From Alkanindiges illinoisensis DSM 15370 (lineage in GTDB: Bacteria; Pseudomonadota; Gammaproteobacteria; Pseudomonadales; Moraxellaceae): a stretch of DNA of 32,000 nt. Position numbers and translations under genes: made by a program. The notes beneath the pieces were generated by a model that saw only the letters and a list, made by a program, of their open reading frames with translations, searched no databases and was not told the origin of the DNA. How positions within the stretch are numbered: the first letter of the stretch is position 1; each line of letters begins with the position of its first letter. This document shows positions 10,272-27,768 of the stretch, piece after piece. Location of the stretch: positions 310,064 through 342,063 of the forward strand of contig NZ_JHUX01000003.1 of the NCBI RefSeq assembly GCF_000619845.1, given 5' to 3'.

Positions 10272-10284
10272 TTTTTAGCAAATA

Positions 10285-10312
10285 AAAGGCTTCCGATTCG
10301 GGAGCTTTTTTA
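10285..10312 (+). terminator. Rho-independent terminator
   Basis: Stem gcttcc (10289-10294) pairs with gggagc (10300-10305) with one G-U pair. It is flanked by aaaa upstream and tttttt downstream. Confidence 0.6.
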
Positions 10313-10323
10313 TTGGGGGTACT

Positions 10324-10635: not shown

Positions 10636-12032
10636 TGTCAGATTTTATCGAAATTTATGATACCGAAATCCTGCTCATTGAAGATGAATCGGGCAGTGTG
10701 CTTGAGTATGTGGGCAGTGCCATCATTGTTGGCGGGGCAGTGCAGAAAGTAAATGGGCAGATTGGCGATATTACCCTGACTGCTGCTGACGTCGCTGCTG
10801 ACCCATTTGGTTCTGCTGATGCAGTACGCACCCAGCTACAGTCACAGATTGATGACAAGGCTGACATTGCAACTGTTAATCAGCAAATTAATGCAATCAA
10901 TCAACAACTACCCAACCTTGCCACACAAACTTATGTGTTGACTGCGCTTACTCCCAAAGCCAGTATAGCTTATGTGGACAATGCAGTAGCTGCAAAAGCG
11001 GACGCACTGGCCACATCACAAGCCTTGGCCACAAAAGCCACCACAGTACAGCTTAATGAAGTCAAGGCGCTGGCCGAAATCAACGAGTTGAAGGTGGGTA
11101 CTAAAGCTGAGCAATCCAGTGTTGATAATTTATCAGCCACAGTGGCAGCACAGGGGCAAACCCTGCTGACCAAGGCCGATATTGCGGCCCTAACAGCACT
11201 TGCCCAACTGGTGGACACCAAGGCAGATCAGTCCTATGTTATTAGCGAGATTGCCCGGATCACTGGCAATGCCCCCGCAGCACTGGACACACTGGCCGAA
11301 ATTGCCGAGCAACTGGGCAACGATGAAACCCAGATTAATAATTTGCTCAATCAGCTTGGCAACCGTGTACGGTTTGATGCTGCACAGTCATTGACGACAG
11401 CACAGCAAAATCAGGTATTAAGTAATATTAATGCTGAAAAAGCAGGGACTGCGGCAGCGCTGGTTACTGCTATCACACCCGCAAGTATCGGCGCAGCTAC
11501 ATCGGCACAAGGTGATAAAGCTAACACTGCGATTCAGTCTGCTGATTTAGCACCAGTAGCGCTATCCGGCTCATTCTCTGATTTAGTCAATAAATCAAGT
11601 CTGTTTAATTTGGTCTACTCAGCTTATGCGCTAGGCAGCAATACAGTGATTTTGGCTACTGACACGTTAGGGCAGATGCTGGGCAAACTGCAAAGTCAAA
11701 TCAGTGCTAATGCAACAGCTATCAGCGGCAAAGAGCCTGCTGTCACGGCCGGCACGACTGCACAGTATCAGCGCGGTGATAAGTCATGGCGTGATTTTGC
11801 AACTGATGTGCGTGCAACAGCGCTGACAGGCTTATCAATGGCAAGCGCTACAGCTATCGTTGCGACTGATAGCGTGCTGTCTGCGCTGGGCAAGCTTCAG
11901 GCACAAGTCACAGCAAATAGCACTGCTATCGCTGCCAAGGTTGATGTCGTGCAGCTCACAAAAGCACAGTACGATGCCTTGTCTACCTCTGACAAGAATC
12001 TGGCTACTAAACTATACGTGATAGTGGGGTGA
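10635..12032 (+). CDS. Phage tail fiber protein
   Basis: Several motifs typical of tail fibers are present. These are the N-terminal VQKVNGQIGDITLTAADVAADPFGSA, GNAPAALDTLAEIAEQLGNDE (nt ~11265-11327) and LAPVALSGSFSDLVNK. There are heptad-like KAD/TKA coiled-coil repeats. A duplicated LGKLQ(S/A)Q(I/V)(S/T)AN(A/S)TAI segment and a C-terminal LTKAQYDAL...KLYVIVG also fit. Confidence 0.85.
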   Translation: MSDFIEIYDTEILLIEDESGSVLEYVGSAIIVGGAVQKVNGQIGDITLTAADVAADPFGSADAVRTQLQSQIDDKADIATVNQQINAINQQLPNLATQTYVLTALTPKASIAYVDNAVAAKADALATSQALATKATTVQLNEVKALAEINELKVGTKAEQSSVDNLSATVAAQGQTLLTKADIAALTALAQLVDTKADQSYVISEIARITGNAPAALDTLAEIAEQLGNDETQINNLLNQLGNRVRFDAAQSLTTAQQNQVLSNINAEKAGTAAALVTAITPASIGAATSAQGDKANTAIQSADLAPVALSGSFSDLVNKSSLFNLVYSAYALGSNTVILATDTLGQMLGKLQSQISANATAISGKEPAVTAGTTAQYQRGDKSWRDFATDVRATALTGLSMASATAIVATDSVLSALGKLQAQVTANSTAIAAKVDVVQLTKAQYDALSTSDKNLATKLYVIVG

Positions 12033-12035
12033 TTT

Positions 12036-12647
12036 ATGGTTGCACTAGCGGCAAGTGGTGAGAGAAAGTTTGTGCGTTATAAGCAGCAGGACGTTGATGC
12101 GGTTTATATCAGGGGTAATAAAATATATGGGAAAAACCTGTGGCAGTTCCCAAATAGTGGAAGCGCTTCTAGTGCGGTATATGGGGAATGGGTAACGGAC
12201 TATTTGAGTGCTGATAATCAACATCAAATCCAGCGCTATGTAAAACGTGGTACTCAAAATATTCAGTCACTCAAGCAATGGACAGGGTTATCACCAATTA
12301 ATTTTGTAGACCTCAACAAATCATATTCATTTCAGTGCAAAGTCAAATCATCCCTACAATTTGTAAGGTTATTTGTTTATATCTATGGGCAGACAAATCC
12401 AGTTACGGCATTTAAAGTGGGTGTAAACAACACAACATTTACAGATGTACAGCTCGCGAGCCTAGTGCCAAATGGATCAGCCACTAATACCGCTTATCGA
12501 GGCGTGGTTTTTCTAGGGTGGTATACTAGCGACTTCAATAATATTACGGATACTGCGTACTTTGAAGGCCATACCATTGAAGTCAAGGAAATGAAATTAG
12601 AGGAGGGCGAGCTTAGCCCGTACTCCATTCATTCCAGCCTGCTTTAA
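12036..12647 (+). CDS. Fiber-associated protein (distal receptor-binding or assembly protein), AT-rich cassette
   Basis: Starts 3 nt after the fiber stop. The sequence is beta-sandwich-like and ends ...EVKEMKLEEGELSPYS, resembling lectin/CBM-like fiber tips. It is visibly more AT-rich than the fiber gene: sampled 60-nt lines give about 32% versus 50% GC. Confidence 0.45.
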   Translation: MVALAASGERKFVRYKQQDVDAVYIRGNKIYGKNLWQFPNSGSASSAVYGEWVTDYLSADNQHQIQRYVKRGTQNIQSLKQWTGLSPINFVDLNKSYSFQCKVKSSLQFVRLFVYIYGQTNPVTAFKVGVNNTTFTDVQLASLVPNGSATNTAYRGVVFLGWYTSDFNNITDTAYFEGHTIEVKEMKLEEGELSPYSIHSSLL

Positions 12648-12660
12648 TCAACTCACCACA

Positions 12661-12724
12661 TGAGCCGAATAAACCAAACATTCGGCTCACACCAAGCCCT
12701 GACTAACACTCAGGGCTTTTTTAT
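12661..12724 (+). terminator. Double hairpin / strong rho-independent terminator ending the tail operon
   Basis: Hairpin 1 pairs tgagccgaat (12661-12670) with attcggctca (12680-12689). Hairpin 2 pairs agccctga (12695-12702) with tcagggct (12710-12717) and is followed by tttttatt. Confidence 0.8.
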
Positions 12725-12743
12725 TGGCTGAAAGGGGAAACCG

Positions 12744-13259
12744 ATGCCAGATAGCAACTACTCAACAGAGCCACCCGCTGCGTCTGCCGCGGCATTAGCC
12801 GCAATCAGCGACAAGATTAGCGACATCCGTGAAGAGCAAAAAAAGCTTGCAGAAATACCGGGCATGTTGTCGAAGATGAATATGCAGTTGGAGCAACTCA
12901 CTAAAGACCACCAGCAAACCCGGCAGGATTTGCACGAAACCCGCAATGGATTTCAAACTGAGCTTGAGAAAATCCATAAAGATGTGGACGACCTGAAAAC
13001 CAGCAAAACCCGGATCGATACATTAAGCGACTGGTTTAAATGGGGTGGGCTGGCACTGATTGCCATGATCATTTCAGCATGGGTCAATCTATCAACCAAG
13101 ATGGACGCCACGGCTGCACAGGCTGCAAATAACTCCCAGCGCATTGAAGTAGTTGAGAAAACGCAGGAAGAACGCCGGGGCATTTTAAATGATCTATTAA
13201 AGCGGATTAATGACCTGCAACTTGATTTCTACAAACGGGGCATGAGTGATGAAAAGTGA
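12744..13259 (+). CDS. Bitopic membrane coiled-coil protein at the head of the lysis cassette (171 aa)
   Basis: An AGGGGA Shine-Dalgarno precedes the ATG. There is a single central TM segment (WGGLALIAMIISAWVNL), with charged heptad-rich segments on both sides. It overlaps the next ORF by 14 nt. Confidence 0.5.
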   Translation: MPDSNYSTEPPAASAAALAAISDKISDIREEQKKLAEIPGMLSKMNMQLEQLTKDHQQTRQDLHETRNGFQTELEKIHKDVDDLKTSKTRIDTLSDWFKWGGLALIAMIISAWVNLSTKMDATAAQAANNSQRIEVVEKTQEERRGILNDLLKRINDLQLDFYKRGMSDEK

Positions 13260-13527
13260 ACATACACGCGCATGGCTGGCACTGGTTGTCATTGCCTTGA
13301 TTGCCCTGCTGGTTGCGGGGCTTTTTTTTATCCAGATTCCAGCCGACAACAAGGACTTGGTGAACATTGCACTGGGCTTTATTGCGGGTTATGCAGCGTC
13401 AGTGGTTGGTTATTACTTCGGCGACAGTGATGCCAGCCGGCACAAAACCGAGTTGCTTAACAATCAGGATGTGGCCACAGGCAAGCCCGGTGATCCGGTG
13501 CATATTGAAAATGAGGATAAGCCATGA
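13246..13527 (+). CDS. Putative holin (two TM segments, charged C-terminus)
   Basis: 93 aa with TM1 WLALVVIALIALLVAGLFFI and TM2 IALGFIAGYAASVVGYYF, then an acidic/basic tail. ATGA overlap with the endolysin gene. Confidence 0.55.
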   Translation: MMKSEHTRAWLALVVIALIALLVAGLFFIQIPADNKDLVNIALGFIAGYAASVVGYYFGDSDASRHKTELLNNQDVATGKPGDPVHIENEDKP

Positions 13528-14108
13528 GCAAGGCAGTATTTGACCAACTCCGAACATTAAGCGGTGGTGCGTTATCACAAGAGCAAGTAGATGCCGGCAA
13601 CCGTATCTTAGGCTTTGCCAATGAATCAGTCGTGCTGCAATTTTTGGGGGCAAACAACGTGCAGAAAATGAAAATCAGTCAGTATGGCACTAACCTGATT
13701 AAGCAGTTTGAATCACTGCGCCTGTCAGCTTATGATGATGGTGTCGGGGTATGGACAATTGGATACGGCACTACCAAATACCCCAATGGCCTTAAAGTTA
13801 AGCGGGGCGACAAATGCACGCAGCAGCAAGCTGAGCAGTATTTGCAGCATGATCTGGCTGAATTTGTTGATGCAGTTAACGATGCACTGACCACTACTGT
13901 TAATCAGAACCAGTTTGATGCCATGGTAAGCCTTGCTTATAACATAGGTGTGACTGCATTTAAGAACAGTACGTTGGTTAAGAAAGTAAATACTGGCGAT
14001 AAGCTGGCCGCAGCTAACCAGTTTCTGCTTTGGAATAAGGCAGGCGGTAGGGTGCTGCAAGGACTTGTAAATCGACGCAGTAAAGAACGTGCATTGTTTT
14101 TGTCATAG
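13524..14108 (+). CDS. Endolysin, glycoside hydrolase family 24 (phage lysozyme)
   Basis: LIKQFESLRLSAYDDGVGVWTIGYGTT matches the GH24 catalytic-Glu region, E-x8-D-x5-T plus TIGYG. AYNIGVTAFKNSTL and LQGLVNRRSKERALF match the conserved C-terminal part. About 48 aa of N-terminal extension precede the catalytic domain. Confidence 0.9.
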   Translation: MSKAVFDQLRTLSGGALSQEQVDAGNRILGFANESVVLQFLGANNVQKMKISQYGTNLIKQFESLRLSAYDDGVGVWTIGYGTTKYPNGLKVKRGDKCTQQQAEQYLQHDLAEFVDAVNDALTTTVNQNQFDAMVSLAYNIGVTAFKNSTLVKKVNTGDKLAAANQFLLWNKAGGRVLQGLVNRRSKERALFLS

Positions 14109-14473: not shown

Positions 14474-14695
14474 TTATTGCCAAAACTTCCACCATTTCTT
14501 TTCCTTCCTCACAACAAACTCCACTGCATGACCCGGCTTGCCACAATCCGCACTCACACACTCACCCTTGTGATTGACCTGTATCACACCGCATCCCTCG
14601 CAGAGTTCCATGACAAGATAGCCTGGCTTGCATAGTCCAGCCATGCCATTTTGCATACGATGGTCTTTAGCACACTGTGCGCAGTATTCAGCCAT
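14474..14695 (-). CDS. Cys-rich small protein (putative zinc-ribbon), translationally coupled to the integrase
   Basis: 73 aa with CxxC (C5, C8), C22, CxxC (C32, C35), C46 and C51. Its ATG overlaps the integrase stop (ATGGCTGA, an 8-nt overlap). Confidence 0.6.
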   Translation of the reverse strand: MAEYCAQCAKDHRMQNGMAGLCKPGYLVMELCEGCGVIQVNHKGECVSADCGKPGHAVEFVVRKEKKWWKFWQ

Positions 14696-15920
14696 TGTCA
14701 GTTACCGATCCATCAAGCCAATCTGCCCACCACTGCATCATTCCGGCACGTTTGCTTAGATACTTAGCGTGATTATAAGATGCTCTGGTCTGATTGCTAC
14801 TCACGTGTGCTAGTTGGATTTCAATCCAGTCTTCATTAAATTCGATTTCATTTAGTGTCGTTGATGCAGTAGCTCTAAAGTCATGTGCCGTTACATCTGA
14901 TAGCTCGATATTCTGAAAAACCCGGTTAATTGTGGCGGGTGATAGCATTTTTTCAGGATTATAGGGGGAAGGGAATATATACTCTGTCATTCCGCTAATC
15001 TTGCGCTGGGCTTCAAGTATTTTTAATGCCTGCGTGGATAATGGGACGATATGCGTCCTATTCTTTTTCATCAACCGCTTACCATCTTTTAGCTGCTCAC
15101 GGCTCGCCATGGGAAGTGTTAATGTTTGATTCTCAAAGTCTACATGCTCCCAGCGTGCGCGCCTGATCTCAATAGTCCGCAGCATGGTATAGAATAGTAA
15201 ATTAACAGCATTCTTAACGGTTTGGGTGCCACCATAGGCAATGAGTTTATTCTTTAGTTCCCTGATTTCGGTTTTATCAAGTGGCCGGGCATGATTAATT
15301 GGCGGTTTCTCAACAATATCCCTGACTGCATAAGTCGGATCATTATCAGCGCGCAGGGTGGCAATGGCATAGCGCATTACGCCACCAATGATCTGCCTAT
15401 TGTTAATAGCTGTAGTTTCTCCTGTGCCATAATTCCTCTGACTTGTAACCCGCTTAATAGTATTCTTGATAATTACCAGCACATCGTGACTACTTACATC
15501 CCTTGCAATTTTATCCCCAATAGCCGGGTAAATGTCTTTATTAAGGCTGACAATAATACCGTCCCTATATCGCTTTGATTTGTGTTGCAACTTGGTGGCA
15601 ATCCATTCTTCAGCAATCACCTTAAACGTATTCTTTCCCTCGTTCTGTTTTTTTAGTTTTTCATCGCGCCGATGTTTAACTGGATTAATACCTTCAGCCA
15701 CCAGTTTACGCATTTCTGCATGTAGCTCCCTTGCCCTGGATAAACCAATTAAAGGGTACTCCCCTAGGCTCATTGATGATTCTTTCTCATCAAGCACAAA
15801 CTTGTAGCGCCACAGCTTTGAGCCATTAGGCTTTACTTCAATATAAAGCCTATCCGCATCCAGCAGGCGGTACATTTTATCCTTAGGCTTTAAGTTTCTA
15901 ATTTTGGCATCTGTCAGCAT
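14688..15920 (-). CDS. int: Tyrosine recombinase, P4-type integrase (DUF4102 N-terminal domain)
   Basis: The N-terminus MLTDAKIRNLKPKDKMYRLLDADRLYIEVKPNGSKLWRYKF...LGEYP...SLSRAR is the typical DUF4102/arm-binding domain. The C-terminal catalytic motifs are TMLRTIEIRRARW, HDFRATAST, LAHV and ...RASYNHAKY. Confidence 0.95.
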   Translation of the reverse strand: MLTDAKIRNLKPKDKMYRLLDADRLYIEVKPNGSKLWRYKFVLDEKESSMSLGEYPLIGLSRARELHAEMRKLVAEGINPVKHRRDEKLKKQNEGKNTFKVIAEEWIATKLQHKSKRYRDGIIVSLNKDIYPAIGDKIARDVSSHDVLVIIKNTIKRVTSQRNYGTGETTAINNRQIIGGVMRYAIATLRADNDPTYAVRDIVEKPPINHARPLDKTEIRELKNKLIAYGGTQTVKNAVNLLFYTMLRTIEIRRARWEHVDFENQTLTLPMASREQLKDGKRLMKKNRTHIVPLSTQALKILEAQRKISGMTEYIFPSPYNPEKMLSPATINRVFQNIELSDVTAHDFRATASTTLNEIEFNEDWIEIQLAHVSSNQTRASYNHAKYLSKRAGMMQWWADWLDGSVTDNG

Positions 15921-17062: not shown

Positions 17063-17078
17063 TGGTATGGCTTTTGCT
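17063..17078 (+). promoter_or_regulatory. Sigma-54 (-24/-12) promoter of glnA
   Basis: TGGTATGGCTTTTGCT compares with the consensus TGGCACG-N4-TTGCW. The GG (17064-65) and GC (17076-77) have the correct spacing. The element lies about 80 nt upstream of the glnA ATG. Confidence 0.6.
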
Positions 17079-17159
17079 AATATATCAGGTATTAAATTTG
17101 TAAGGCGCACCTACAGGGTGCAGTTACCCAATACTGGGAAATACTGGAGCAAAGTGAGC

Positions 17160-18569
17160 ATGGCAAATAAAGTCCTCAACTTAATTAAAGAGCACGAGGC
17201 CAAGTGGGTCGATTTTCGTTTTACAGACACGCGCGGTAAAGAACAACACGTTACTTTCCCTGCTGGCACTGTTGATGAAGATACCTTCGAAGATGGCAAA
17301 ATGTTTGATGGTTCTTCTATTGCTGGCTGGAAAGGCATTGAAGCATCTGACATGATTTTGCGTCCAGATCCTGAAACTGCTTTTATCGACCCGTTCTTTG
17401 AAGCAACAACTGTTGTGGTGACCTGTGACGTTATCGAGCCGACCACTGGCCAGGGTTATGACCGTGATCCACGTTCCATTGCACGCCGCGCTGAGGAATA
17501 TTTAAAGTCTACCGGTATTGGCGACACTGCATTCTTTGGTCCAGAACCAGAATTTTTTGTATTTGACGAAGTGAAATTCGACATTGACATGTCAGGTGCC
17601 CGTCATACCATTTATGCTGAAGAAGCTGCCTGGTCTACCAACAAGGACTACGAAGCTGGTAATACTGGCCACCGTCCTCGTGTTAAAGGCGGTTATTTCC
17701 CGGTTCCTCCAGTGGACAGCGCGCATGACCTGCGTGTTGCCATGTGTGATGCCATTGAAGCCATTCTGGGCGAAGGCAAAGTTGAAGTTCAACACCACGA
17801 AGTTGCTTCCTGCCAGTCTGAAATTGGTGTGAGCTTTAACACACTGGTACGTAAAGGTGATGAAGTTCAGGCAACCAAATATGCCATTTTGAACGTTGCC
17901 CACCAGTTTGGTAAAACAGCAACCTTCATGCCGAAACCAATCGTTGGTGATAATGGTTCAGGTATGCACGTTCACATGTCAATCAGCAAAGACGGCAAAA
18001 ACCTGTTTGCTGGTGATGAATATGCAGGCTTGTCTGAGCTAGCACTGTTCTTTATTGGTGGTGTGATCAAGCATGCCCGTTCCCTGAACGCGATTACCAA
18101 CCCGTCAACCAACTCTTACAAGCGTCTGGTTCCGCATTTTGAAGCCCCGATCATGCTGGCTTATTCTGCGAAAAACCGTTCTGCGTCTATCCGTATTCCT
18201 TATGTTTCCAGCCCGAAAGGCAAGCGTATTGAAGCACGTTTTCCGGATTCTACTGCCAACCCATACCTGTGCTTTGCTGCACTGCTGATGGCCGGTATCG
18301 ATGGTATCCAGAACAAGATTCATCCAGGCGAAGCTGCTGACAAAAACTTGTATGACTTGCCTCCTGAAGAAGAAGCCAAGATTCCTACAGTAGCCCATAG
18401 CCTGGAAATGGCGCTGGATGCACTGAAAGCGGATCATGACTATCTGACCAAAGGTGGTGTATTCACCAAGGAAATGCTGGACGCTTATGTTGAGCTGAAA
18501 ATGGAAGACGTACGTCGCCTGAACACCACAACTCACCCAGTTGAGTTTGAAATGTACTATAGCTGCTAA
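17160..18569 (+). CDS. glnA: Glutamine synthetase type I
   Basis: ATG 17160 gives [34 protein letters not shown]..., a 469-aa protein of typical GSI length. Signature regions are FDGSSIAGW, the ATP-binding [33 protein letters not shown], and the adenylylation-loop NLYDLPPEE. The track's 17067 start adds an implausible leader. Confidence 0.97.
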
Positions 18570-19208: not shown

Positions 19209-20663
19209 TTAAGTCAATGAGTAGTCTTTAGGATTAAAACTGGATAGACGTGCGCGCATTTCAAAGGTTGTCCAAGGCCATAAGGTGCTATTTCTGCCAT
19301 TGGCGTCAATAAAGTAGCTGCTGCAACCACCTTTATTCCAGACCGTATCTTTTAAGGCATCTTGTACTTCATCATTGTAGCTGGCAACGATTTCAGGTTT
19401 GACTTCAAAAGTCTGAACATTCTTTTGTTTTAACTGTTTCAGTGCATCTAGGATATACGCAAGTTGTGCTTCGAGGATAATTAATGCCGAAGAACTGACC
19501 GCAATATTGGGACCAAACGTGATAAACGCATTGGGACAACCGGGAACAACGGTTCCCAAATATCCTACCGGGCTACCATTCCAGACTTCTTCCATGGTTT
19601 TGCCATGTTTATTACGAATTTGCTTGGCAACAGGCGGATTACTAATTTCAAACCCTGTACCAAAGATAATCACATCAACTTCATGTTCGCTGCCATCATC
19701 GGCAATTAATGTATTGCCTTTAATTTCCTGAACTCCACAACGGCGTACATCAACATTCGATTTGGTTAATGCGGGATACCAGTTATTCGATTGCAGAACC
19801 CGTTTACAACCAATGGTAAAGTTGGGGATTAATTTTTCCCTTAAAGCCTTGTCTTTAACCGCATGGTTAATATTCCACTTTGCCAGACTTTCAATCTGAC
19901 GAATCAGCTTAGGATGGTGCATACTGGAATTTAAAGATTCAAATACCCCATACACACTATAACGAGTTAAACGTTGGGTAATCGGTAAGAATTTAAACAG
20001 GAGCTGGGCTGCTTTGGGCAGGCTTTGATCCATTTTGGGCAAGACCCATTGCGGGGTGCGTTGAATCAAAGTCAGTTTTGCCACTTTAGGCTGAATTTCC
20101 GGGACAAACTGAATTGCAGACGCACCAGCACCAATCACGGCAACCCGTTTGCCGGTCAGGTCAATATCATGCCGCCAGTGGGTGGAATGGAAACTTGCCC
20201 CCTTAAAACTATCCATTCCAGGAATTTCAGGATAAACCGGCTCATGCATGGGGCCGCCTGCCATAATTACAAAGCGGGCAGAAAATTCACCCTGACTGGT
20301 AGAGATGTTCCAGCGTCTGGCCTGATTATCCCAAGCCGCTTCAATCATTTCATATTGAAAGCGCACATAAGGGATTACGCCAAACTGCTCAGCGGTACGT
20401 TGCAGGTAGTGCTTGATTTCCAGTTGTGGTGCAAATACGCGGCTCCACTTTGGATTGGGTGCAAAGGAATAGGAATATAACGCGGAAGGGACATCACAGG
20501 CGCAACCGGGATAGGTGTTGGCACGCCAGACACCACCAATTTCCGTGGCTTTTTCCAGAACAACAAAATCGGTAATACCAGCTTCTTTAAGTTTGATTGC
20601 TGCGCCAATCCCGGCAAAACCAGCACCAATAATGACTACTTCAAAGATTTGGGCTTGAGACAT
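19209..20663 (-). CDS. Flavin-dependent Baeyer-Villiger-type monooxygenase (EthA/AlmA-like)
   Basis: The N-terminal FAD-binding motif is VVIIGAGFAGIGAA. FKGASFHSTHWRHD fits the type I BVMO fingerprint FxGxxxHxxxW. The second Rossmann motif is VAVIGAGASAIQ. Length is 484 aa. Confidence 0.85.
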   Translation of the reverse strand: MSQAQIFEVVIIGAGFAGIGAAIKLKEAGITDFVVLEKATEIGGVWRANTYPGCACDVPSALYSYSFAPNPKWSRVFAPQLEIKHYLQRTAEQFGVIPYVRFQYEMIEAAWDNQARRWNISTSQGEFSARFVIMAGGPMHEPVYPEIPGMDSFKGASFHSTHWRHDIDLTGKRVAVIGAGASAIQFVPEIQPKVAKLTLIQRTPQWVLPKMDQSLPKAAQLLFKFLPITQRLTRYSVYGVFESLNSSMHHPKLIRQIESLAKWNINHAVKDKALREKLIPNFTIGCKRVLQSNNWYPALTKSNVDVRRCGVQEIKGNTLIADDGSEHEVDVIIFGTGFEISNPPVAKQIRNKHGKTMEEVWNGSPVGYLGTVVPGCPNAFITFGPNIAVSSSALIILEAQLAYILDALKQLKQKNVQTFEVKPEIVASYNDEVQDALKDTVWNKGGCSSYFIDANGRNSTLWPWTTFEMRARLSSFNPKDYSLT

Positions 20664-20675
20664 GTGGTGTCATCC

Positions 20676-21515
20676 TTATTTGGTTTGTGCCAGTTTGTTC
20701 AGGCGGTTTTCATAACTCTGGCGATCCTTACGGTTCAGACCTTTAAGGATGCGGTCATCACCTGCAATACGGCGAGCAGCAGTATTGAGCCACTGGGGTA
20801 CTAAACCATAAGCACGCGGGCTATGGGTCAGATAGTGCGGTACAGCAATTTCAGGCATGTTGTCACGGATTGCACGAATCACTGCCTGTGCAACATCCTC
20901 AGGATCAACCGTTGGAATAGGAAGATCTTCACCTGTACCAGAAGAAAGCTCGGTGCGTACTTTAGATGGCATCACCGTAGATATATTGATTGGGGTATCC
21001 CGTAATTCCTGTTGCATAGAAGCGGTTAAACCCACCACAGCAAATTTGGTAGCACAATAGACACTTGCACCAGGAATTGGATATTTACCTGCTAAAGACG
21101 CCACATTAACAATATGTCCTTTTTGACGCTGTAACATACCGCCCAAAACCGCTTTCATGCCATGAATCACACCGCGCAAATTAATATCAATCTGGGCATT
21201 GGTAATGGCTTCACTTTCCTCAAGGAAATGTCCCATCGGCATAATGCCGGCATTGTTAACCAGAATATCAACTGGCCCCAGATTGCTTTCAGTAGCTGTA
21301 ATAAAGTCATTGAATGACTGCTGCGAGCGGACATCGACATGGTAACCAAAGCCATTCACGCTTTTAGTGGCCTGTTCGGCAAGCTCGGTATCAATATCAC
21401 CAATCGCAACTTTTGCACCAAGCTGTGCAAAGGCTTTTGCCGTTGCCAAGCCAATGCCACGACCTGCGCCGGTAATGACAACAACCTGGTCTTTAAAGTT
21501 ATAACTGCGTTTCAT
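20676..21515 (-). CDS. Short-chain dehydrogenase/reductase (SDR)
   Basis: Motifs are TGAGRGIG (cofactor binding), NNAG and the catalytic YCATK (YxxxK). I prefer ATG 21515 (MKRSYNFKDQVVVITG), which has an AGGA Shine-Dalgarno, over the track start at 21566. There is a 12-nt gap to the BVMO start, so the two likely form an operon. Confidence 0.85.
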   Translation of the reverse strand: MKRSYNFKDQVVVITGAGRGIGLATAKAFAQLGAKVAIGDIDTELAEQATKSVNGFGYHVDVRSQQSFNDFITATESNLGPVDILVNNAGIMPMGHFLEESEAITNAQIDINLRGVIHGMKAVLGGMLQRQKGHIVNVASLAGKYPIPGASVYCATKFAVVGLTASMQQELRDTPINISTVMPSKVRTELSSGTGEDLPIPTVDPEDVAQAVIRAIRDNMPEIAVPHYLTHSPRAYGLVPQWLNTAARRIAGDDRILKGLNRKDRQSYENRLNKLAQTK

Positions 21516-21634
21516 GGCTTTTCCTGCATATTTTGCGTCAAATTTAATCTTGGAATAAATTGTCATTTTTGGAATTAAATGTCAAATTTTAATTTTAAGT
21601 CGTTTTTAATGGATACTTCTGATAAGATTTTTAC

Positions 21635-22273
21635 ATGAATGACAAAACCACAATTTCCCGGGCGGAACGCCAGCGAATTCAATTACAGGCAGAAATTATT
21701 GAAGCTGCATTTATTGAGTTTTCCGAGCGTGGCTATCACCAAACCGCAATTTCTGATATTGCCCAGCGTCTAGGCATTGGGCATGGCACGTTTTACCGTT
21801 ACTTTCAAAACAAGCGTGATATCCTGGACAAGGTGATTGCTGATACCTCAGTGAAGATCATGGATTTACTGGCCAATGAAAATGCACCCGGTGCAGTTGC
21901 ATCGGTAGAAGAATATCGTATACAGGCTGAACGGATTGCAGGAAAGTTTCTTGAATTTGCCAGAGAAAACCCGCGTATCATGCGTTTGATTCTATTGGAA
22001 GCTACCTCAATTGATCAGCAAATGACGGCACAAGTGAATAATCTGTTGCATATGGGCGGCTTATTTACCGCATCGTATTTGAAAGACGGGGTAACAAGAG
22101 GGTTTTTAAGGGCAGATCTGGATATTGAAATGACTGGGCATGCGATTGTCGGCTTTATTGTCGCAGGCGCATTACGCTTTCTGGCTGCACCTGACAATAC
22201 AGAAGCTATGAAAAGTTATAGTCAGGCTGCCATTCAAATGATGATGTTTGGGATTGCTTCTATAGATCAATAA
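21635..22273 (+). CDS. TetR/AcrR-family transcriptional regulator
   Basis: The N-terminal HTH reads AAFIEFSERGYHQTAISDIAQRLGIGHGTFYRYFQNKRDIL. It is divergent from the SDR-BVMO operon. Confidence 0.9.
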   Translation: MNDKTTISRAERQRIQLQAEIIEAAFIEFSERGYHQTAISDIAQRLGIGHGTFYRYFQNKRDILDKVIADTSVKIMDLLANENAPGAVASVEEYRIQAERIAGKFLEFARENPRIMRLILLEATSIDQQMTAQVNNLLHMGGLFTASYLKDGVTRGFLRADLDIEMTGHAIVGFIVAGALRFLAAPDNTEAMKSYSQAAIQMMMFGIASIDQ

Positions 22274-22380
22274 GTTTGACAAGGATTATAATTTAAAAAA
22301 ATTGACTAAATTAATAGTCCCCTATTTTGTCCCTTATTTGAATATTTTTTAAATTAAGTGTTTGTTTTTTAAGACATAGT

Positions 22381-22710
22381 GTACTATAGCTGCAATTAAA
22401 ATAGCAGTATTAAGGCGCCCCTTTAAACTGGAGGGGCGCCTTAATTTAAGCCCAGAAGCATTGGTATTATTGCTTCCGGGCTTTTTTATTGTCTTATGCT
22501 TTTCAATATAATTTAATCAAATCCAGCATTATTTGTCCTCTGGTTTACTCATTTATCAATAAGTAGAGGACAGGAGGCTATGAAATAGGGGAACAGATTA
22601 TACTTTAGCGCTTGTGTTATCGGATTGCAGAGTAGTGACTTTAACTGATGTGCAGTTTAGAAAATTAAAACTAACTGGCAATAAATATCAGGTGGCTAAT
22701 GTCACGATCT
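22381..22710 (+). repeat. Direct repeat copy B: orphan glnA 3' end + terminator + integrase 5' fragment
   Basis: Starts with gtactatagctgc, the last 13 nt of the glnA CDS, with no glnA body upstream. It is then collinear with copy A. Confidence 0.85.
22412..22488 (+). terminator. Duplicated (orphan) glnA terminator region: two hairpins
   Basis: A perfect 11-bp stem pairs aaggcgcccct (22412-22422) with aggggcgcctt (22432-22442). A second stem pairs aagcccagaagca (22448-22460) with tgcttccgggctt (22471-22483), followed by a T-run. In copy A the first hairpin has decayed. Confidence 0.7.
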
Positions 22711-22867
22711 AGTGATTATTGTCCGGGCTAAAGGAATGATGCACTGGCGATATAAATATAAAATAGATGGGAAAAAGAAAAAGTTATCTTTAGGTATATA
22801 TTCTGCAGTTATGGGCAACGATAAGCCGTTTCAGGTTGGATCTAGATTTTTAAGTGGCGAAAGTTAG
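22635..22867 (+). pseudogene. P4-type integrase remnant B (frameshifted, about 65 N-terminal codons recognisable)
   Basis: VTLTDVQFRKLKLTGNKYQVANVTI reaches a stop. In another frame, IIVRAKGMMHWRYKYKIDGKKKKLSLGIYSAV matches the DUF4102 pattern LxVxxxGxKxWxxRYxxxGKxKxLSLGxYP. No catalytic domain follows. Confidence 0.65.
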
Positions 22868-23163
22868 GCAATAAACGATTAGCTCAATTTGTCCTTCAGC
22901 TTAACCACTTAAGATTGGCTCAGCCTATAGCTCCAATAGGATTTAAATCCAAACGCTATAGTCTAGCGATCTGGCTACACCAAAGCGGGTGCCTATAATG
23001 ATATTTTCTAAGGATACAATGAAGTCATTTCACTTTTTATGTTTGAACCCCACAGAACCTATGAAAGTGAATTTTTCTCATGATTTTTCTAAAAAAGATC
23101 ATTTTTATTCATGTTGTGATTCAGGTATAAATCCTCTTATAGAAATGAGGGGACCAGATCATC

Positions 23164-24141
23164 ATGAGTCAAGAGTTTACATTTGCGATTAAGCGCATTC
23201 ATTTTGATGAAAACTATCATCCGGCAGACAATACACGTCTCACTACTAACTTTGCGAATTTGGCCAGAGGAGAACATCGCCAGGAGAACTTGCGCAAAGC
23301 TTTAAAGATGATTGACAATCGTTTCAATGCCTTGGCGCACTGGGATAATCCTCACGCAGATCGTTATTCGGTCGAACTTGAAATTATTTCGGTTGATATT
23401 GATATTGAAGGTAATGGCAAGACTTTCCCTACCATTGAAATATTAAAAACCAATATCATTGATCACAAGAACAACCAGCGCATTGAAGGTATTGTTGGCA
23501 ACAATTTCTCCTCATATGTGCGCGATTATGATTTCAGTGTATTACTGCCAGAACATAATAAGCATCAAGCTCAATTTAGCACCCCAGAAAACTACGGCGA
23601 ACTGCATGGCAAAATCTTTAAAGCATTTGTGAACTCAAATGTTTATCAAGATAACTTTGCTAAATCACCTGTGATTTGTCTGAGTGTTTCAAGTAGCAAG
23701 ACTTATCATCGTACTGAAAACCAGCATCCTGTCCTCGGTGTGGAATATCAGCAAGATTCCTATTCTTTAACCGATGAATATTTCGCAAAAATGGGCTTGC
23801 AGGTTCGCTATTTTATGCCGCCAAACAGTGTTGCTCCTTTGGCATTTTATCATCGTGGTGATTTGCTCATTGATTATACGGATCTTGAGCTGATCGGCAC
23901 CATCAGCACCATGGAAACCTTTCAAAAGATTTACCGGCCTGAGATTTACAATGCCAATTCTGCAGCAGGGAAATATTATCAACCCAGCTTGAAATATCAG
24001 GATTATTCATTAACCCAGATTGTTTATGACCGGGAAGAACGTAGCCAGTTGGCGGTTAAGCAGGGCAAATTTACTGAACAGCACTTCATCAAGCCTTACC
24101 AGAAAATTCTTGAGCAATGGGCTGCCAATTATGCTGTTTAA
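23164..24141 (+). CDS. mesX: DUF1852-family protein (MesX-like partner of the core methionine synthase)
   Basis: This 325-aa soluble protein sits directly upstream of a short MetE-like gene and a flavin reductase. I recall that gene triad as characteristic of DUF1852 proteins in Acinetobacter and Pseudomonas. Family assignment is from memory of sequence and context, not from an HMM. Confidence 0.7.
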   Translation: MSQEFTFAIKRIHFDENYHPADNTRLTTNFANLARGEHRQENLRKALKMIDNRFNALAHWDNPHADRYSVELEIISVDIDIEGNGKTFPTIEILKTNIIDHKNNQRIEGIVGNNFSSYVRDYDFSVLLPEHNKHQAQFSTPENYGELHGKIFKAFVNSNVYQDNFAKSPVICLSVSSSKTYHRTENQHPVLGVEYQQDSYSLTDEYFAKMGLQVRYFMPPNSVAPLAFYHRGDLLIDYTDLELIGTISTMETFQKIYRPEIYNANSAAGKYYQPSLKYQDYSLTQIVYDREERSQLAVKQGKFTEQHFIKPYQKILEQWAANYAV

Positions 24142-24183
24142 GCTCTGATACATTTTAATTTCAAATAGATAAGATAATTAGTT

Positions 24184-25215
24184 ATGAAACGATTATTACC
24201 GACGTCAACAGCTGGCAGTTTACCCAAACCTTCCTGGCTTGCAGAGCCTGAGAAACTTTGGTCGCTCTGGAAACTACAGGATAGCGAATTGATTGATGGC
24301 AAACAGGATGCGTTACGTTTGGCATTGCAGGAACAGCAACAGGCTGGCATCGATATTGTCAGTGATGGCGAACAGACGCGCCAGCATTTTGTCACCACAT
24401 TTATTGAACACCTTAACGGCGTTGATTTTGAAAAACGTGAGACCGTGAGAATCCGTAATCGCTATGATGCGAGTGTACCCACTGTGGTGGGTGCGGTATC
24501 GCGTCAACAGCCCGTGTTTGTGGATGATGCGCGGTTTTTACGCTCGCTTACCGATCAACCGATTAAATGGGCACTACCTGGCCCGATGACCATGATTGAT
24601 ACGCTGTATGATGCGCATTATAAAAGCCGTGAAAAACTCGCCTGGGAATTTGCCAAAATCCTCAATGAAGAAGCCAAAGAGTTAGAGGCTGCTGGTGTGG
24701 ACATTATCCAGTTTGATGAACCTGCATTTAATGTGTTTTTTGATGAGGTAAATGACTGGGGTGTTGCTACTTTAGAGCGGGCACTTGAAGGACTAAAATG
24801 TGAAACTGCCGTGCATATTTGCTATGGCTATGGCATCAAGGCCAATACAGAGTGGAAAAAAACGCTGGGTTCAGAATGGCGGCAATATGAAGAAGCATTT
24901 CCGAAATTGCAACAGTCAAAAATCGATATCATTTCACTGGAGTGTCATAACTCACGTGTTCCAATCGACCTGCTTGAACTCATCCGCGGTAAAAAAGTGA
25001 TGGTCGGTGCTATTGACGTGGCTACCAACAGCATTGAAACCCCAGAGGAAGTTGCCGATACCCTGCGTAAAGCCCTTCAATTTGTCGATGCCGACAAGCT
25101 CTATCCGTCGACCAACTGTGGTATGACGCCTTTATCCCGTCAAGTTGCAAGAGGCAAGCTTAATGCATTAAGTGCCGGTGCAGAAATCGTCCGCAAAGAA
25201 CTCTTGGGCAAGTGA
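24184..25215 (+). CDS. mesD: Core (single-barrel) MetE-like methionine synthase, MesD-like
   Basis: At 343 aa it is less than half of the 753-aa E. coli MetE. It keeps the C-terminal-barrel zinc and homocysteine motifs: VHICYGYG (His-x-Cys), SLECHNS (Glu) and STNCGMTP (Cys). The N-terminus is PTSTAGSLPKPSWL. There is no N-terminal folate-binding barrel. Confidence 0.8.
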   Translation: MKRLLPTSTAGSLPKPSWLAEPEKLWSLWKLQDSELIDGKQDALRLALQEQQQAGIDIVSDGEQTRQHFVTTFIEHLNGVDFEKRETVRIRNRYDASVPTVVGAVSRQQPVFVDDARFLRSLTDQPIKWALPGPMTMIDTLYDAHYKSREKLAWEFAKILNEEAKELEAAGVDIIQFDEPAFNVFFDEVNDWGVATLERALEGLKCETAVHICYGYGIKANTEWKKTLGSEWRQYEEAFPKLQQSKIDIISLECHNSRVPIDLLELIRGKKVMVGAIDVATNSIETPEEVADTLRKALQFVDADKLYPSTNCGMTPLSRQVARGKLNALSAGAEIVRKELLGK

Positions 25216-25296
25216 TTACTGAGAGAGTAGGGCAAAAGAGTTCCCGTTTAACTGTATTTCAGGATTAAACGGGTCAATGTCATGAGGAACAATGTG

Positions 25297-25839
25297 ATGA
25301 TTGAAGCAACAGACTTTAGACATGCCATGGCGTTGTTAAGCAGTGCGGTCAATGTCATTACCACAGCAGGGCTGTCTGGTCGTTATGGATTCACGGCATC
25401 TGCGGTGTGTGGTGTCTCTGATACACCCGCAAGCTTACTGGTCTGTATGAATAAAGCTTCCCGGTCACATGGGCATTTTATAGACAATAAAATTTTAACG
25501 GTGAATGTTTTAGGCGCGCAGCATCAGCATCTTTCCCATGCATTTTCATCCGGTATGAGTTCAGAAGAGCGCTTTAAACAAGGCGTTTGGACAGAACTGG
25601 AAACGGGCGCCCCCGTCTTGGCAGATGCTCTGGTGAGTTTTGACTGTGAGATTGAGCAGATTCAGGAAGTCGGAACCCATACTATTTTTATCTGTCGTAT
25701 TGTTGCGATTCAACACGGTCAACAAGAGCAAGGCCAGCAGGATCAGGGTCTGGTTTATTTTAATCGTGGCTATCATCAAATTGGTCATCATGTCGGGCCT
25801 CAAGTTGGCCATCAGGTGGGGCAGGCCGAAACTGCTTAA
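25297..25839 (+). CDS. NAD(P)H-flavin reductase (flavin reductase-like domain)
   Basis: MIEATDFRHAMALLSSAVNVITT...FTASAVCGVSDTPASLLVCMNK...FDCEIEQIQEVGTHTIFICRIV is typical of HpaC/RutF-like flavin reductases. ATG 25297 has a GAGGA 8 nt upstream; the track start at 25282 is the alternative. The C-terminal tail is unusual, Gln/His/Gly-rich: QQEQGQQDQG...HHVGPQVGHQVGQ. Confidence 0.8.
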   Translation: MIEATDFRHAMALLSSAVNVITTAGLSGRYGFTASAVCGVSDTPASLLVCMNKASRSHGHFIDNKILTVNVLGAQHQHLSHAFSSGMSSEERFKQGVWTELETGAPVLADALVSFDCEIEQIQEVGTHTIFICRIVAIQHGQQEQGQQDQGLVYFNRGYHQIGHHVGPQVGHQVGQAETA

Positions 25840-25881
25840 GCCTACTGGTTATTTCATTTAAAACTTTCAAGTCAGTATATC

Positions 25882-26682
25882 GTGGAATTAATCATTTTCT
25901 TTGCAATTGGTGCATTAGCGGGATTTGCCGCAGGACTGTTTGGTGTTGGTGGTGGAACGATTATCGTGCCCCTGTTGTATGTGGTCTTTACCCAAATGGG
26001 CTATGACCCTGAAGTGATCATGCATATGGCGCTAGGAACGTCGTTAGCGACCATTATCGTGACATCGATAAGTTCATTAATGGCACACCATAAAAATGGT
26101 GCAGTCATCTGGCCGGTATTTAAAAACCTGACACCAGGGATGGCTTTAGGATCTTTTTTAGGGGCAGGTATTGCAGGGCTGCTGTCTGGCGCACATTTGC
26201 AACTGATTATCGGTGTGTTCGTGATCTGGGTGGCTTACACCATGTTTGCTGGTGCAAAAAAGGTCATAGATCAGAACAAAGTACTGCCATCAACCCCTAA
26301 ACAAGTCGTTGCAGGGACGGGAATCGGTGTTGCATCAGCAATTTTTGGGATTGGCGGCGGGAGCTTAACTGTACCTTATCTCAATCATTATGGTGTGGTC
26401 ATGCAAAAGGCCGTTGGCACATCAGCCGCATGTGGTTTACCGATCGCGATTGCAGGTGCTTTGGGCTTTATGTTTTTTGGTATGAAAGACCAGATTAATG
26501 TGCCAAATACGATTGGCTTTGTACATATTTATGCATTCTTAGGGATTAGCATCATGAGTTTTTTTACCGCAAAACTCGGTGCAAAAACAGCTCATGCATT
26601 ATCACCAGCCGTACTTAAAAAATGCTTTGCTGTATTGTTATTGATCGTCGGCTGTTTTTTCATCTTTAAGGGATTACATTGA
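25882..26682 (+). CDS. TauE/SafE-family (DUF81) anion permease
   Basis: 266-aa polytopic membrane protein with two internal halves, each starting with a G(V/I)GGG(T/S) motif (GLFGVGGGTIIVP and AIFGIGGGSLTVP). Confidence 0.8.
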   Translation: MELIIFFAIGALAGFAAGLFGVGGGTIIVPLLYVVFTQMGYDPEVIMHMALGTSLATIIVTSISSLMAHHKNGAVIWPVFKNLTPGMALGSFLGAGIAGLLSGAHLQLIIGVFVIWVAYTMFAGAKKVIDQNKVLPSTPKQVVAGTGIGVASAIFGIGGGSLTVPYLNHYGVVMQKAVGTSAACGLPIAIAGALGFMFFGMKDQINVPNTIGFVHIYAFLGISIMSFFTAKLGAKTAHALSPAVLKKCFAVLLLIVGCFFIFKGLH

Positions 26683-26705
26683 GATAGAGTCAGTTCATTT
26701 TCTAT

Positions 26706-27136
26706 GGGTCTTAGGAAGTTAGAGGGGGCTATTACGGAGTATAATTTAAGCAAATCGAGGTATAAAGTACCATTCCGAGGATTGAAGCGATACTCTGTTT
26801 CTTTAAGATGCAAATAAAACATCTTTTTGTCAATTCCATTAAACTTAATGAGTCTCTTTTTAGCATAGTCCCAGAATGATTCTAACCCGTTAATATGACG
26901 CTCCCCATTGGCAAACTCATTATCTCTATGATGCTTGTCAAAGCCAATGTCGACCAGACCATCATAGCCTCTCCAGCCATCAGTTTTGCTATCTTACGCA
27001 GTAAAATCCATTGTAAAAAAGCGAACAATCTGCCTGAATTTTGCTTCTGTAATTCTTGAACGAGAATATTATCTATTTTTTGCTTTCATATAAGGAAGTT
27101 ACCATACTTTTTAATATGCTTAACTTCCTAAGACCC
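26706..27136 (-). mobile_element. Internally deleted IS1595-family insertion sequence (431 bp, non-autonomous)
   Basis: The terminal inverted repeats are perfect over 16 bp: gggtcttaggaagtta (26706-26721) and taacttcctaagaccc (27121-27136). On the minus strand an N-terminal fragment reads MKAKNR*YSRSRITEAKFRQIVRFFTMDFTA*. It joins a C-terminal fragment reading DGWRGYDGLVDIGFDKHHRDNEFANGERHINGLESFWDYAKKRLIKFNGIDKKMFYLHLKETEYRFNPRNGTLYLDLLKL. Both match ISXO2-like/IS1595 transposase patterns, and the DDE core is missing. Confidence 0.8.
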
Positions 27137-27318: not shown

Positions 27319-27768
27319 GTGATGTATTTGATGGCCGGGCCATTAATTATGGTAGCAACTTTTGTAGGTTTTATTGGCGCCTATACCCATGCACTATTTG
27401 GCCCGGAACTGCTGTTTGTGGGTGGCGCGCTGGCTGCAGTCATTGTCACCTGGTTTACGTTTTTGCCTTCTTTCCTGTTTATTCTGGCTGGTGGGCCACT
27501 GATTGAATCTACGCATAATGATATTAAATTTACTGCACTACTGACTGCCATTACGGCTGCTGTGGTTGGCGTCATTTTAAATCTGGCGCTATTGTTTGGT
27601 TATCACGTGTTTTGGCCAAAAGGATTTGCAGGGAGCTTTGACTGGATATCGGCTTTGATTGCTTTGGGTGCGGCAATAACGTTGTTCCATTACGAGCAAA
27701 ATGTGATTCAGGTGATTATTGCTTGTGCCCTGATCGGACTAGTCTTGAGTTATATCCAGCTACCATAA
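27319..27768 (+). CDS. Chromate-transporter (CHR) family membrane protein, probably a 5'-truncated remnant
   Basis: The segment AGPLIMVATFVGFIGAY...FLPSFLFILAGGP...VVGVILNLAL fits a CHR-family half-domain. The (P/A)GP motif sits at residues 7-9, whereas I recall it about 50 aa in for short CHR proteins. An in-frame TAG lies at 27313 just upstream. Confidence 0.5.
   Translation: MMYLMAGPLIMVATFVGFIGAYTHALFGPELLFVGGALAAVIVTWFTFLPSFLFILAGGPLIESTHNDIKFTALLTAITAAVVGVILNLALLFGYHVFWPKGFAGSFDWISALIALGAAITLFHYEQNVIQVIIACALIGLVLSYIQLP

Follow-up and report, generated by a model that had tools for sequence, protein, structure and literature searches.

The methionine synthase MesD methylates homocysteine to methionine and needs neither MetF nor cobalamin (Price et al., 2021; PMC7857596). 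In Acinetobacter baylyi, MesD (ACIAD3523) and its partner MesX (ACIAD3524) are both needed for methionine synthesis without vitamin B12, and the mesX and mesD pair of Sphingomonas koreensis rescues the delta-metE and delta-metF strains of E. coli, provided that both genes are present and growth is aerobic (PMC7857596). MesD is the sole methionine synthase in approximately one-fifth of the organisms that carry it (PMC7857596). The present analysis concerns a MesX/MesD locus at positions 23164-26682 of a 32,000-nucleotide stretch of DNA (the window) from Alkanindiges illinoisensis DSM 15370 (contig NZ_JHUX01000003.1, positions 310,064 to 342,063). As judged from its sequence, the region appears, with a probability of roughly 0.9, to be a canonical mesX-mesD operon, extended here by two accessory genes for a flavin reductase and a TauE-type permease. 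The locus is an ordinary ortholog of the described MesX/MesD system, and its identification re-discovers work already known and published.

The initial annotation of this DNA, made from the sequence alone, cited Price, Deutschbauer, and Arkin (2021) for the statements that MesD needs MesX (DUF1852) and oxygen (O2) and that the methyl donor was unidentified, which agrees with that paper (PMC7857596). A full-text literature search, beyond whose reach most subscription journals lie, found no post-2021 paper identifying the donor, and the post-2021 literature that it found consists only of papers applying the 2021 classification. In a rhizosphere study, MesD-carrying Acinetobacter and Rhizobium escape poisoning of MetH by nitrous oxide (N2O) (PMC13059711), as is expected of a cobalamin-independent enzyme.

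Three groups of described enzymes are instructive for comparison. MesD has in common with MetE (TIGR01371; T. maritima structure 1xpg) the catalytic (β/α)8 barrel, the zinc H-x-C/E/C motifs, and homocysteine activation, and the MesD of the window scores 97 bits to 1xpg. Unlike MetE, MesD lacks the N-terminal barrel and hence the methyl-folate site, and it needs MesX and O2 in place of methyl-tetrahydrofolate (PMC7857596). MesA, MesB, and MesC are, like MesD, single-barrel enzymes without the folate domain, in which the zinc and homocysteine residues are conserved (PMC7857596). These three are found in strict anaerobes, and their methyl group is predicted to come from corrinoid proteins, whereas MesD is found in aerobes, is cobalamin-independent, and requires MesX. 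Furthermore, in the HpaBC, RutAF, SsuED, and MsuED systems a small NAD(P)H:flavin reductase is encoded beside its O2-dependent partner, as is the case beside mesXD, where the reductase is of the HpaC/RutF class and, in other genomes, of the MsuE/SsuE class. The HpaC/RutF class provides the reductase component of two-component flavin monooxygenases, in which reduced flavin diffuses to the oxygenase; a host reductase can consequently substitute, which fits the finding that MesX and MesD work in E. coli. Unlike the HpaBC-type systems, MesX is devoid of known oxygenase-component folds and its use of flavin is putative, and its reaction would yield a methyl donor in place of a hydroxylated or desulfonated substrate.

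The closest described system, that of A. baylyi ADP1 and S. koreensis, has the same order of mesX, mesD, and flavin reductase, the same Pfam and NCBIfam assignments, and conserved upstream promoter elements. The locus in the window differs from it in three respects: TauE is added as a fourth gene, which most Acinetobacter lack and which Psychrobacter, Cellvibrio, and a metagenome-assembled genome (MAG) of Moraxellaceae possess; mobile-element scars lie on both flanks; and the reductase carries a low-complexity tail.

The mesX-mesD operon and its synthase

Four open reading frames (ORFs) follow one another on the forward strand at 23164-26682:

23164..24141, + strand: mesX, 325 amino acids (aa); MesX/DUF1852, obligatory partner of MesD and putative oxygenase (PF08908)
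24184..25215, + strand: mesD, 343 aa; predicted single-barrel (core) methionine synthase (Meth_synt_2, NF006589)
25282..25839, + strand: flavin reductase, 185 aa; HpaC/RutF class (PF01613)
25882..26682, + strand: TauE/SafE (TSUP) anion permease, 266 aa, GTG start (PF01925)

All four were present as the tight co-directional cluster that the initial annotation had described, with gaps of 42 base pairs (bp) between mesX and mesD, 66 bp between mesD and the reductase gene, and 42 bp between the latter and tauE. A single transcript is likely to cover all four genes, since a simple terminator scan found no terminator-like site between them. Profile searches placed 23164-24141 in the DUF1852/MesX family and 24184-25215 in the MetE catalytic-domain family, again as initially proposed.

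A scan of one genome per species yielded 80 related loci in 37 genera of gamma-, beta-, and alphaproteobacteria, whose neighboring genes were assigned by tblastn and ORF clustering. Co-occurrence of the clustered genes is complete for the first two, mesD lying directly downstream of mesX in all 80 loci, but partial for the accessory genes, the PF01613 reductase being adjacent in 27 loci and TauE in 28. The four-gene order of the window is also found in Psychrobacter, Cellvibrio, and another Moraxellaceae genome. The closest database relatives are those of Acinetobacter and an uncultured Moraxellaceae genome (MesX 86% identical), and an identical sequence was found on a contig assembled from run SRR3313971.

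The MesD protein matches Meth_synt_2 over residues 5-329 (E = 7e-40) and the NCBIfam model NF006589, "methionine synthase", with 701.6 bits (cutoff 392). It is 90% identical to A. baylyi MesD and scores 702 bits in phmmer, where the published threshold is at least 560 bits to ACIAD3523; the phmmer reference was the ortholog from DSM 14961, the A. baylyi type strain (locus L007), standing in for the ADP1 protein. Its score to the MetE equivalog TIGR01371 is 112.7 bits, far below the cutoff of 929.95, and extends over model positions 425-752 only, that is, over the C-terminal half, and Meth_synt_1, the N-terminal-barrel family, reaches 21.1 bits, below its cutoff of 27. MesD is accordingly classed here, from these profile matches, as a single-barrel "core" enzyme, because only the C-terminal half of MetE is matched and Meth_synt_1 stays sub-threshold. 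Room for an N-terminal barrel is lacking, since the gap to mesX is only 42 bp, and the absence of this barrel from the 343-aa protein was correctly noted at the outset.

The MetE zinc-ligand motifs reported earlier were also recovered: H211 and C213 (HICYG, at 211), E254 (LECHNS, at 252), and C312 (NCGM, at 311). In the phmmer alignment, the Glu and the last Cys motifs line up with "SIEASRS" and "PDCGL" of T. maritima MetE; the equivalence of the H-x-C motif to "AHMCYS" of MetE is by inspection and from Price et al., a MesD-specific insertion shifting this motif in the alignment. A solved structure of a MesD ortholog exists as PDB entry 3rpd, "Methionine synthase (B12-independent)", from structural genomics (674 bits over residues 3-342), which was solved without MesX and in which the methyl donor is not visible. 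The MesD of the window is 85-91% identical to proteins of Rhizobium, Janthinobacterium, Achromobacter, and Enterobacterales. Such similarity of MesD and MesX across proteobacterial classes is far beyond that usual for inter-class orthologs and suggests very strong constraint, frequent horizontal transfer, or both.

MesX, the flavin reductase, and the oxygen requirement

The 325-aa protein encoded ahead of the synthase, which the initial annotation had called DUF1852-type, matches PF08908 over its full length (E = 4e-188; 624.6 bits, cutoff 25; residues 1-321 on positions 1-323 of the 323-position profile). PF08908, earlier DUF1852, is named "Putative oxygenase MesX" in Pfam, and a full-length match above its gathering score is how MesX was defined by Price et al. 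(2021). The protein is 84% identical to A. baylyi MesX (phmmer, 627 bits), and context also places it in the family, mesD starting 42 bp past the mesX stop and the two genes being adjacent in every related locus. The family is compact and strongly conserved: 338 representatives (50% identity clusters) were found at E ≤ 0.001, most of them fragments, and proteobacterial MesX proteins are 75-86% identical to that of the window.

In an alignment of 80 MesX sequences, with identities down to 33%, 41 positions are invariant. Among them are a single His (H148) and numerous Arg, Tyr, Ser, Thr, Asp, and Glu residues, while Cys is absent; motifs that hold them include TRxTTNFANLAR, NFSSYxRDYDF, FGxLHG, IYRPEIY, and YDRxER. 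With one invariant His and no invariant Cys, the pattern seems ill-suited to an oxygenase site of the 2-His-1-carboxylate or di-iron kind; a classical iron center is probably absent from MesX, and so, probably, is a methyl intermediate bound to a conserved cysteine. The AlphaFold2 model computed from the same alignment has a predicted local distance difference test (pLDDT) score of 92.2 and a predicted TM-score (pTM) of 0.91. Foldseek found no relative of this model in the PDB (best E = 0.17; TM-scores ≤ 0.27), and the sequence search of the PDB likewise found none (best E = 0.8). An O2-dependent coproporphyrinogen oxidase ranked 22nd in Foldseek with E of approximately 1 and TM-scores of 0.14-0.16 and was rejected as noise. 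The predicted fold offers no mechanistic lead, because a solved structural relative is absent.

The flavin reductase named after mesD in the initial annotation is recognized by PF01613 (E = 4e-37; 128 bits, cutoff 27). Its best NCBIfam matches lie below their cutoffs, namely RutF TIGR03615 (190.6 of 254.75 bits) and HpaC TIGR02296 (155.3 of 205.95 bits), and it therefore belongs to neither equivalog. The ORF begins with ATG at 25282; the alternative start at 25297, given in the initial annotation and chosen by the gene caller on the source contig, is also ATG. The protein is approximately 75% identical to its A. baylyi counterpart. Its Gln/His/Gly-rich tail, to which attention had been drawn, is real, and it is a low-complexity, lineage-specific extension that relatives lack; as a functional feature it was rejected, since the tail alignment shows no conservation even among the closest relatives.

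The 27 loci with a same-strand PF01613 reductase directly after mesD belong to 11 of the 37 genera and occur in Acinetobacter, Psychrobacter, the Moraxellaceae MAG, Cellvibrio, Vitreoscilla, Ignatzschineria, Wohlfahrtiimonas, Rhizobium, Pseudochrobactrum, Paraburkholderia, and one Pseudomonas. A flavin reductase neighbor was also reported in Sphingomonas, and the neighbor ACIAD3522 in A. baylyi, together with the same redox argument, was already presented by Price et al. (PMC7857596). In A. baumannii, B12 lowers the DUF1852 gene (log2 -8.3) and the adjacent flavin reductase gene (log2 -2.5) (PMC12892962). In four further loci of the survey, a non-homologous reductase of the MsuE type (PF03358; TIGR03566, 263 bits, cutoff 212.5), which uses flavin mononucleotide (FMN), is encoded on the mesX strand, 61-153 bp upstream of that gene. 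The coordinates within these loci are:

L012, 5347-5940: MsuE-type FMN reductase, Janthinobacterium
L014, 5300-5932: MsuE-type FMN reductase, Janthinobacterium
L047, 5337-5930: MsuE-type FMN reductase, Janthinobacterium
L066, 5255-5848: MsuE-type FMN reductase, Achromobacter

When this non-homologous type is counted, 31 of the 80 loci have a flavin or FMN reductase beside mesXD. On the evidence of gene order, the MsuE type in place of the PF01613 reductase reads as a non-orthologous displacement that points to reduced FMN (FMNH2). Reduced FMN is the likeliest co-substrate of MesX/MesD, because two unrelated reductase families adjoin mesXD, a recruitment that lends independent support to a need for it. 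The proposal of the initial annotation that a conserved flavin reductase supplies reduced flavin for O2 chemistry thus matches the reasoning of Price et al. on ACIAD3522, although the universal conservation that it assumed does not hold, with the PF01613 reductase in 27 and either type in 31 of the 80 loci.

A reaction scheme can be outlined on this basis. MesD would hold homocysteine as a zinc thiolate via H211, C213, E254, and C312, as MetE does. MesX would be the oxygenase component of a two-component flavin system and would be supplied with free FMNH2 by the HpaC/RutF-type reductase encoded downstream, or else by any housekeeping reductase. With FMNH2 and O2, MesX would turn a central metabolite into a methyl donor usable by MesD. 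The odds that MesX works by such a flavin-dependent oxygenase mechanism are about even.

The strongest competing explanation holds that MesX is not a flavin oxygenase at all but a methyl carrier, a chaperone that activates MesD, or an enzyme with another cofactor, the O2 need being indirect (hydrogen peroxide, H2O2, or the redox state of a cofactor). This explanation is somewhat unlikely, yet several observations fit it. Foldseek shows no resemblance of the MesX model to known flavoprotein or oxygenase folds; motifs for binding nucleotides or flavin were not recognized; the invariant residues include only one His and no Cys; and Price et al. allow for H2O2 or covalent methyl carriage (PMC7857596). 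These observations are opposed by the recruitment of two unrelated flavin reductase families beside mesXD, by the restriction of the family to aerobes together with the failure of anaerobic complementation (PMC7857596), and by the many invariant Arg, Ser, and Tyr residues, which we infer would suit a phosphorylated or anionic ligand such as FMN.

Promoter and flanking DNA

Between an integrase remnant and mesX, approximately 35-100 bp ahead of the mesX start codon, lies a conserved block with the following elements:

23068..23132, + strand: conserved promoter region ahead of mesX, shared by Moraxellaceae (13 upstream regions aligned)
23068-23080, + strand: MetR-box-like element 1, TGAATTTTTCTCA
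23103-23111, + strand: MetR-box-like element 2, TTTTATTCA
23124-23132, + strand: -10-like element, GGTATAAAT

The 13 aligned upstream regions, from Acinetobacter, Psychrobacter, and the Moraxellaceae MAG, have invariant TGAA..TCA, TTTTxTTCA, and GTATxA columns. The MetR consensus of E. coli is TGAA-N5-TTCA, which element 1 resembles. MetR-like LysR genes lie beside mesXD in 26 of the 80 loci and in Aurantiacibacter, their best NCBIfam match being MetR with approximately 195-199 bits, under the cutoff; in Microbacterium, a LysR gene without a MetR match adjoins mesXD. A conserved, homocysteine-responsive promoter of the MetR type probably drives the four-gene transcript, which would account for the strong B12 repression seen in A. 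baumannii, as for E. coli metE. Control by a cobalamin or S-adenosylmethionine (SAM) riboswitch was considered because B12 represses mesX in A. baumannii. Rfam found no riboswitch in the window at its gathering thresholds, nothing beyond sub-threshold hits on unrelated families came from a permissive scan of 22200-23300, and the MetR-type promoter was preferred.

Remnants of mobile elements and a truncated gene border the operon on either side:

22638..22864, + strand: N-terminal remnant of a P4-type tyrosine integrase (approximately 60 aa, one frameshift), found by six-frame translation
26685..27068, - strand: degenerate IS1595-family transposase remnant with in-frame stops, starting 3 bp past the tauE stop
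27319..27768, + strand: C-terminal fragment of a chromate transporter (ChrA); Chromate_transp, E = 1.6e-16, profile 50-166; TIGR00937, positions 254-368 of 368

The integrase remnant, approximately 300 bp upstream of mesX, matches Arm-DNA-bind_3 with E = 9.3e-5 and 22.9 bits, under the cutoff of 27, and its motifs match those of an intact integrase at 14688-15920. The IS1595 remnant matches DDE_Tnp_IS1595 with E = 3.3e-7 and 30.9 bits (cutoff 27). The chrA gene was probably cut down to its C-terminal third by insertion of this element.

The initial annotation placed the module directly after an integrase remnant and suggested that it may be island-borne. The remnant is real, whereas island status is not established, the G+C content and shared gene order speaking otherwise. 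That the four genes were recently acquired on a genomic island is unlikely. The integrase remnant on one side and the IS1595 remnant and truncated chrA directly on the other would suit such an origin, none of the 80 related loci shares the flanking genes of the window, which are those for TetR and the SDR at one end and ubiC and ubiA at the other, and the identities to alpha- and betaproteobacterial proteins (MesX 75-78%, MesD 85-91%) are compatible with horizontal spread. By contrast, the G+C contents of the four genes (0.40, 0.47, 0.47, and 0.44) bracket the window mean of 0.455, and compositional evidence for an island, looked for on this basis, gave no sign of one. No tRNA gene was found in the window, a tRNA attachment site for the integrase remnant was rejected, and no direct-repeat attachment site was found in the window either. 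The family-specific promoter and the gene order are common to other Moraxellaceae, which fits vertical inheritance within the family, and the remnants may mark unrelated insertions beside a resident operon.

Further features of the flanking DNA are recorded here in their own right. Positions 1-14108 of the window form a prophage-like block with a phage lysozyme at 13524-14108, followed by the intact P4-type integrase (14688-15920, - strand) beside glnA (17067-18569). Six ORFs of 437-691 aa in this block have no Pfam match at E = 1e-5:

132-1544: prophage-block ORF
2305-4278: prophage-block ORF
4281-5894: prophage-block ORF
5933-7246: prophage-block ORF
7960-10035: prophage-block ORF
10635-12032: prophage-block ORF

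On the reverse strand at 19209-21566, genes for a flavin-binding monooxygenase (Baeyer-Villiger/FMO-type) and a short-chain dehydrogenase diverge from that of a TetR regulator (21635-22273, + strand). This cluster lies a short way upstream of the integrase remnant; it bears no relation to the methionine module and is absent from the mesXD loci of other genomes. Two consecutive GC-rich hairpins follow the TetR gene at 22405-22495 (aaggcgcccc...ggggcgcctt, then gcccagaagc...gcttccgggc with a T-run); their appearance is that of terminators, tandem or bidirectional, between the cluster and the integrase remnant, and the simple terminator scan did not report them.

Anion permeases and the reach of MesX chemistry

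The fourth gene of the cluster encodes, as first annotated, a TauE/SafE permease (PF01925, E = 4.9e-52; 177.4 bits, cutoff 32.6; residues 7-259). The 28 loci in which TauE adjoins mesXD are spread over 12 of the 37 genera and have three arrangements. TauE follows the reductase, as in the window, in Psychrobacter, Cellvibrio, the Moraxellaceae MAG, and an uncultured Acinetobacter (72-89% identity); in Colwellia, an Oceanospirillaceae MAG, and Litoribrevibacter, it adjoins mesD directly on the downstream side; and in Vibrio, Grimontia, Pseudoalteromonas, and some Colwellia, it lies upstream in divergent orientation (36-40% identity). Since the linkage outlasts rearrangement, it suggests a functional or regulatory tie between TauE and mesXD; Price et al. 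make no mention of any permease link (PMC7857596). The initial suggestion that the permease links the module to sulfur or anion traffic is reasonable in view of this recurrent adjacency.

E. coli delta-cysA is complemented by a TauE-family protein of P. fluorescens, which acts as a sulfate importer, and in fitness data a homolog follows sulfate assimilation (PMC11535334); members of the TSUP family are treated as sulfate transporters elsewhere (PMC5840216). By analogy with these proteins, the TauE of the window may be a sulfate-uptake permease, an assignment that we rate slightly below even. TauE would most likely import sulfate or a related sulfur oxyanion for homocysteine synthesis and would probably stand outside the chemistry of methyl transfer.

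A second kind of permease is encountered at other loci. SulP is another permease family that includes sulfate importers. In Aurantiacibacter poecillastricola (locus L085, 7638-10867), the genes downstream of mesX-mesD, on the same strand, encode a SulP/STAS permease and an oxidoreductase dependent on flavin adenine dinucleotide (FAD), of the DAO/FAD_oxidored type; this pairing of permease and flavoprotein differs from that of the window. In the 80-locus set, SulP beside mesXD gave one weak match only, far upstream in Erwinia, and the SulP link rests on Aurantiacibacter and a divergent MesX clade.

This divergent clade of MesX-like proteins comprises loci L081 and L086-L090 (proteins P0141, P0150, P0274, P0294, P0290, and P0285), including Synechococcus sp. 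CCY9202. The proteins are 33-38% identical to the MesX of the window and keep the invariant residues of the family. A MesD homolog was found at none of the six loci, only three of which have several kb of flanking DNA. Beside them lie, among others, a SulP/STAS permease (L086), a STAS protein together with an alpha carbonic anhydrase (L087), and, at L089, a TauE permease. The chemistry of MesX may not be confined to methionine synthesis. Another protein, P0222 (2170 aa), with 15 MesX-like stretches, was dismissed as a repetitive Ig-domain protein with a marginal MesX match.

These contexts bear on another explanation, namely that the TauE and SulP permeases are a functional part of the MesX/MesD reaction, exporting an anionic by-product or importing the donor or its precursor, rather than supplying sulfate. 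The persistence of TauE linkage through three arrangements and 12 genera favors this, as do the SulP/STAS permease after mesXD in Aurantiacibacter and the anion transporters beside MesX-like genes that lack mesD; at those divergent loci, the transporter link tracks MesX and not methionine synthesis. Nevertheless, it is distinctly unlikely: MesD and MesX suffice in E. coli on glucose minimal medium (PMC7857596), such that no dedicated importer is needed and any exporter is replaceable; TauE is not adjacent in 52 of the 80 loci; the TauE and SulP families hold proven sulfate importers (PMC11535334; PMC5840216), which is the simpler explanation; and the divergent-clade contexts come from five or six metagenomic contigs only.

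The weakest explanation, that the reductase and TauE are neighbors without a functional link to a two-gene module, the rest being lineage-specific gene order of Moraxellaceae, agrees with the 22 of 80 loci that have neither gene and the absence of accessory genes from most, with the predominance of Moraxellaceae among the PF01613 cases (19 of 27 loci), and with the sufficiency of two genes in E. coli (PMC7857596), but it is improbable given the reductase after mesD in unrelated lineages from Cellvibrio to Rhizobium and one Pseudomonas, and in Sphingomonas per Price et al., the non-homologous FMN reductase beside mesX in Janthinobacterium and Achromobacter, the co-repression of reductase and mesX by B12 in A. 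baumannii (PMC12892962), and the three arrangements of TauE in 12 genera.

The preferred account, namely an extended mesX-mesD operon in which MesX would use reduced flavin and TauE would supply sulfur, has several points weighing against it. The functional evidence comes from genetics on the orthologs of A. baylyi and S. koreensis (PMC7857596), and the 80 loci, being those most closely related to the query, are phylogenetically non-independent. The flavin reductase is missing from most of them, and 22 have no accessory gene of any kind. MesD and MesX alone complement E. coli (PMC7857596). The reductase is therefore dispensable or replaceable, in keeping with the E. coli result, and its linkage could reflect something besides MesX catalysis. 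The O2 need could be indirect, the possibility of H2O2 having been raised by Price et al. (PMC7857596), and Foldseek, with nothing at E < 0.1, recognized no flavin-binding fold in MesX, nor was such a motif recognized. The MetR assignment of element 1 comes from its likeness to the E. coli consensus, and the role of TauE is drawn by analogy from family members that are not close, TauE proteins being common paralogs.

A far-reaching extension of the preferred account is that MesX founds a structurally new class of O2-dependent, probably FMNH2-dependent, enzymes, which would make a methyl donor from a central metabolite together with an anionic by-product and for which TauE or SulP/STAS permeases would be dedicated exporters or importers, the divergent mesD-less clade included. 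This is a long shot; if true, MesX-type chemistry would serve reactions beyond methionine synthesis. In one speculative version, a Baeyer-Villiger-type insertion of oxygen into a methyl ketone or acetyl compound would give a methyl ester or methyl carbonate, which the zinc-homocysteine thiolate of MesD might then demethylate, leaving an acid anion or bicarbonate.

The source of the methyl group is a real biochemical question, which the routine ortholog described here makes no more tractable than the 2021 paper did. For the biochemist, the leads are the two unrelated FMN reductase families beside mesXD, the frequent anion-permease neighbor, and the mesD-less MesX clade, to which may be added that MesX has a lone invariant His, lacks any invariant Cys, and is without a relative of solved structure. 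Among known methionine synthases, only MesX/MesD dispenses with both folate and cobalamin and yet requires oxygen, and it lets bacteria evade B12 limitation and the N2O poisoning of MetH (PMC13059711).

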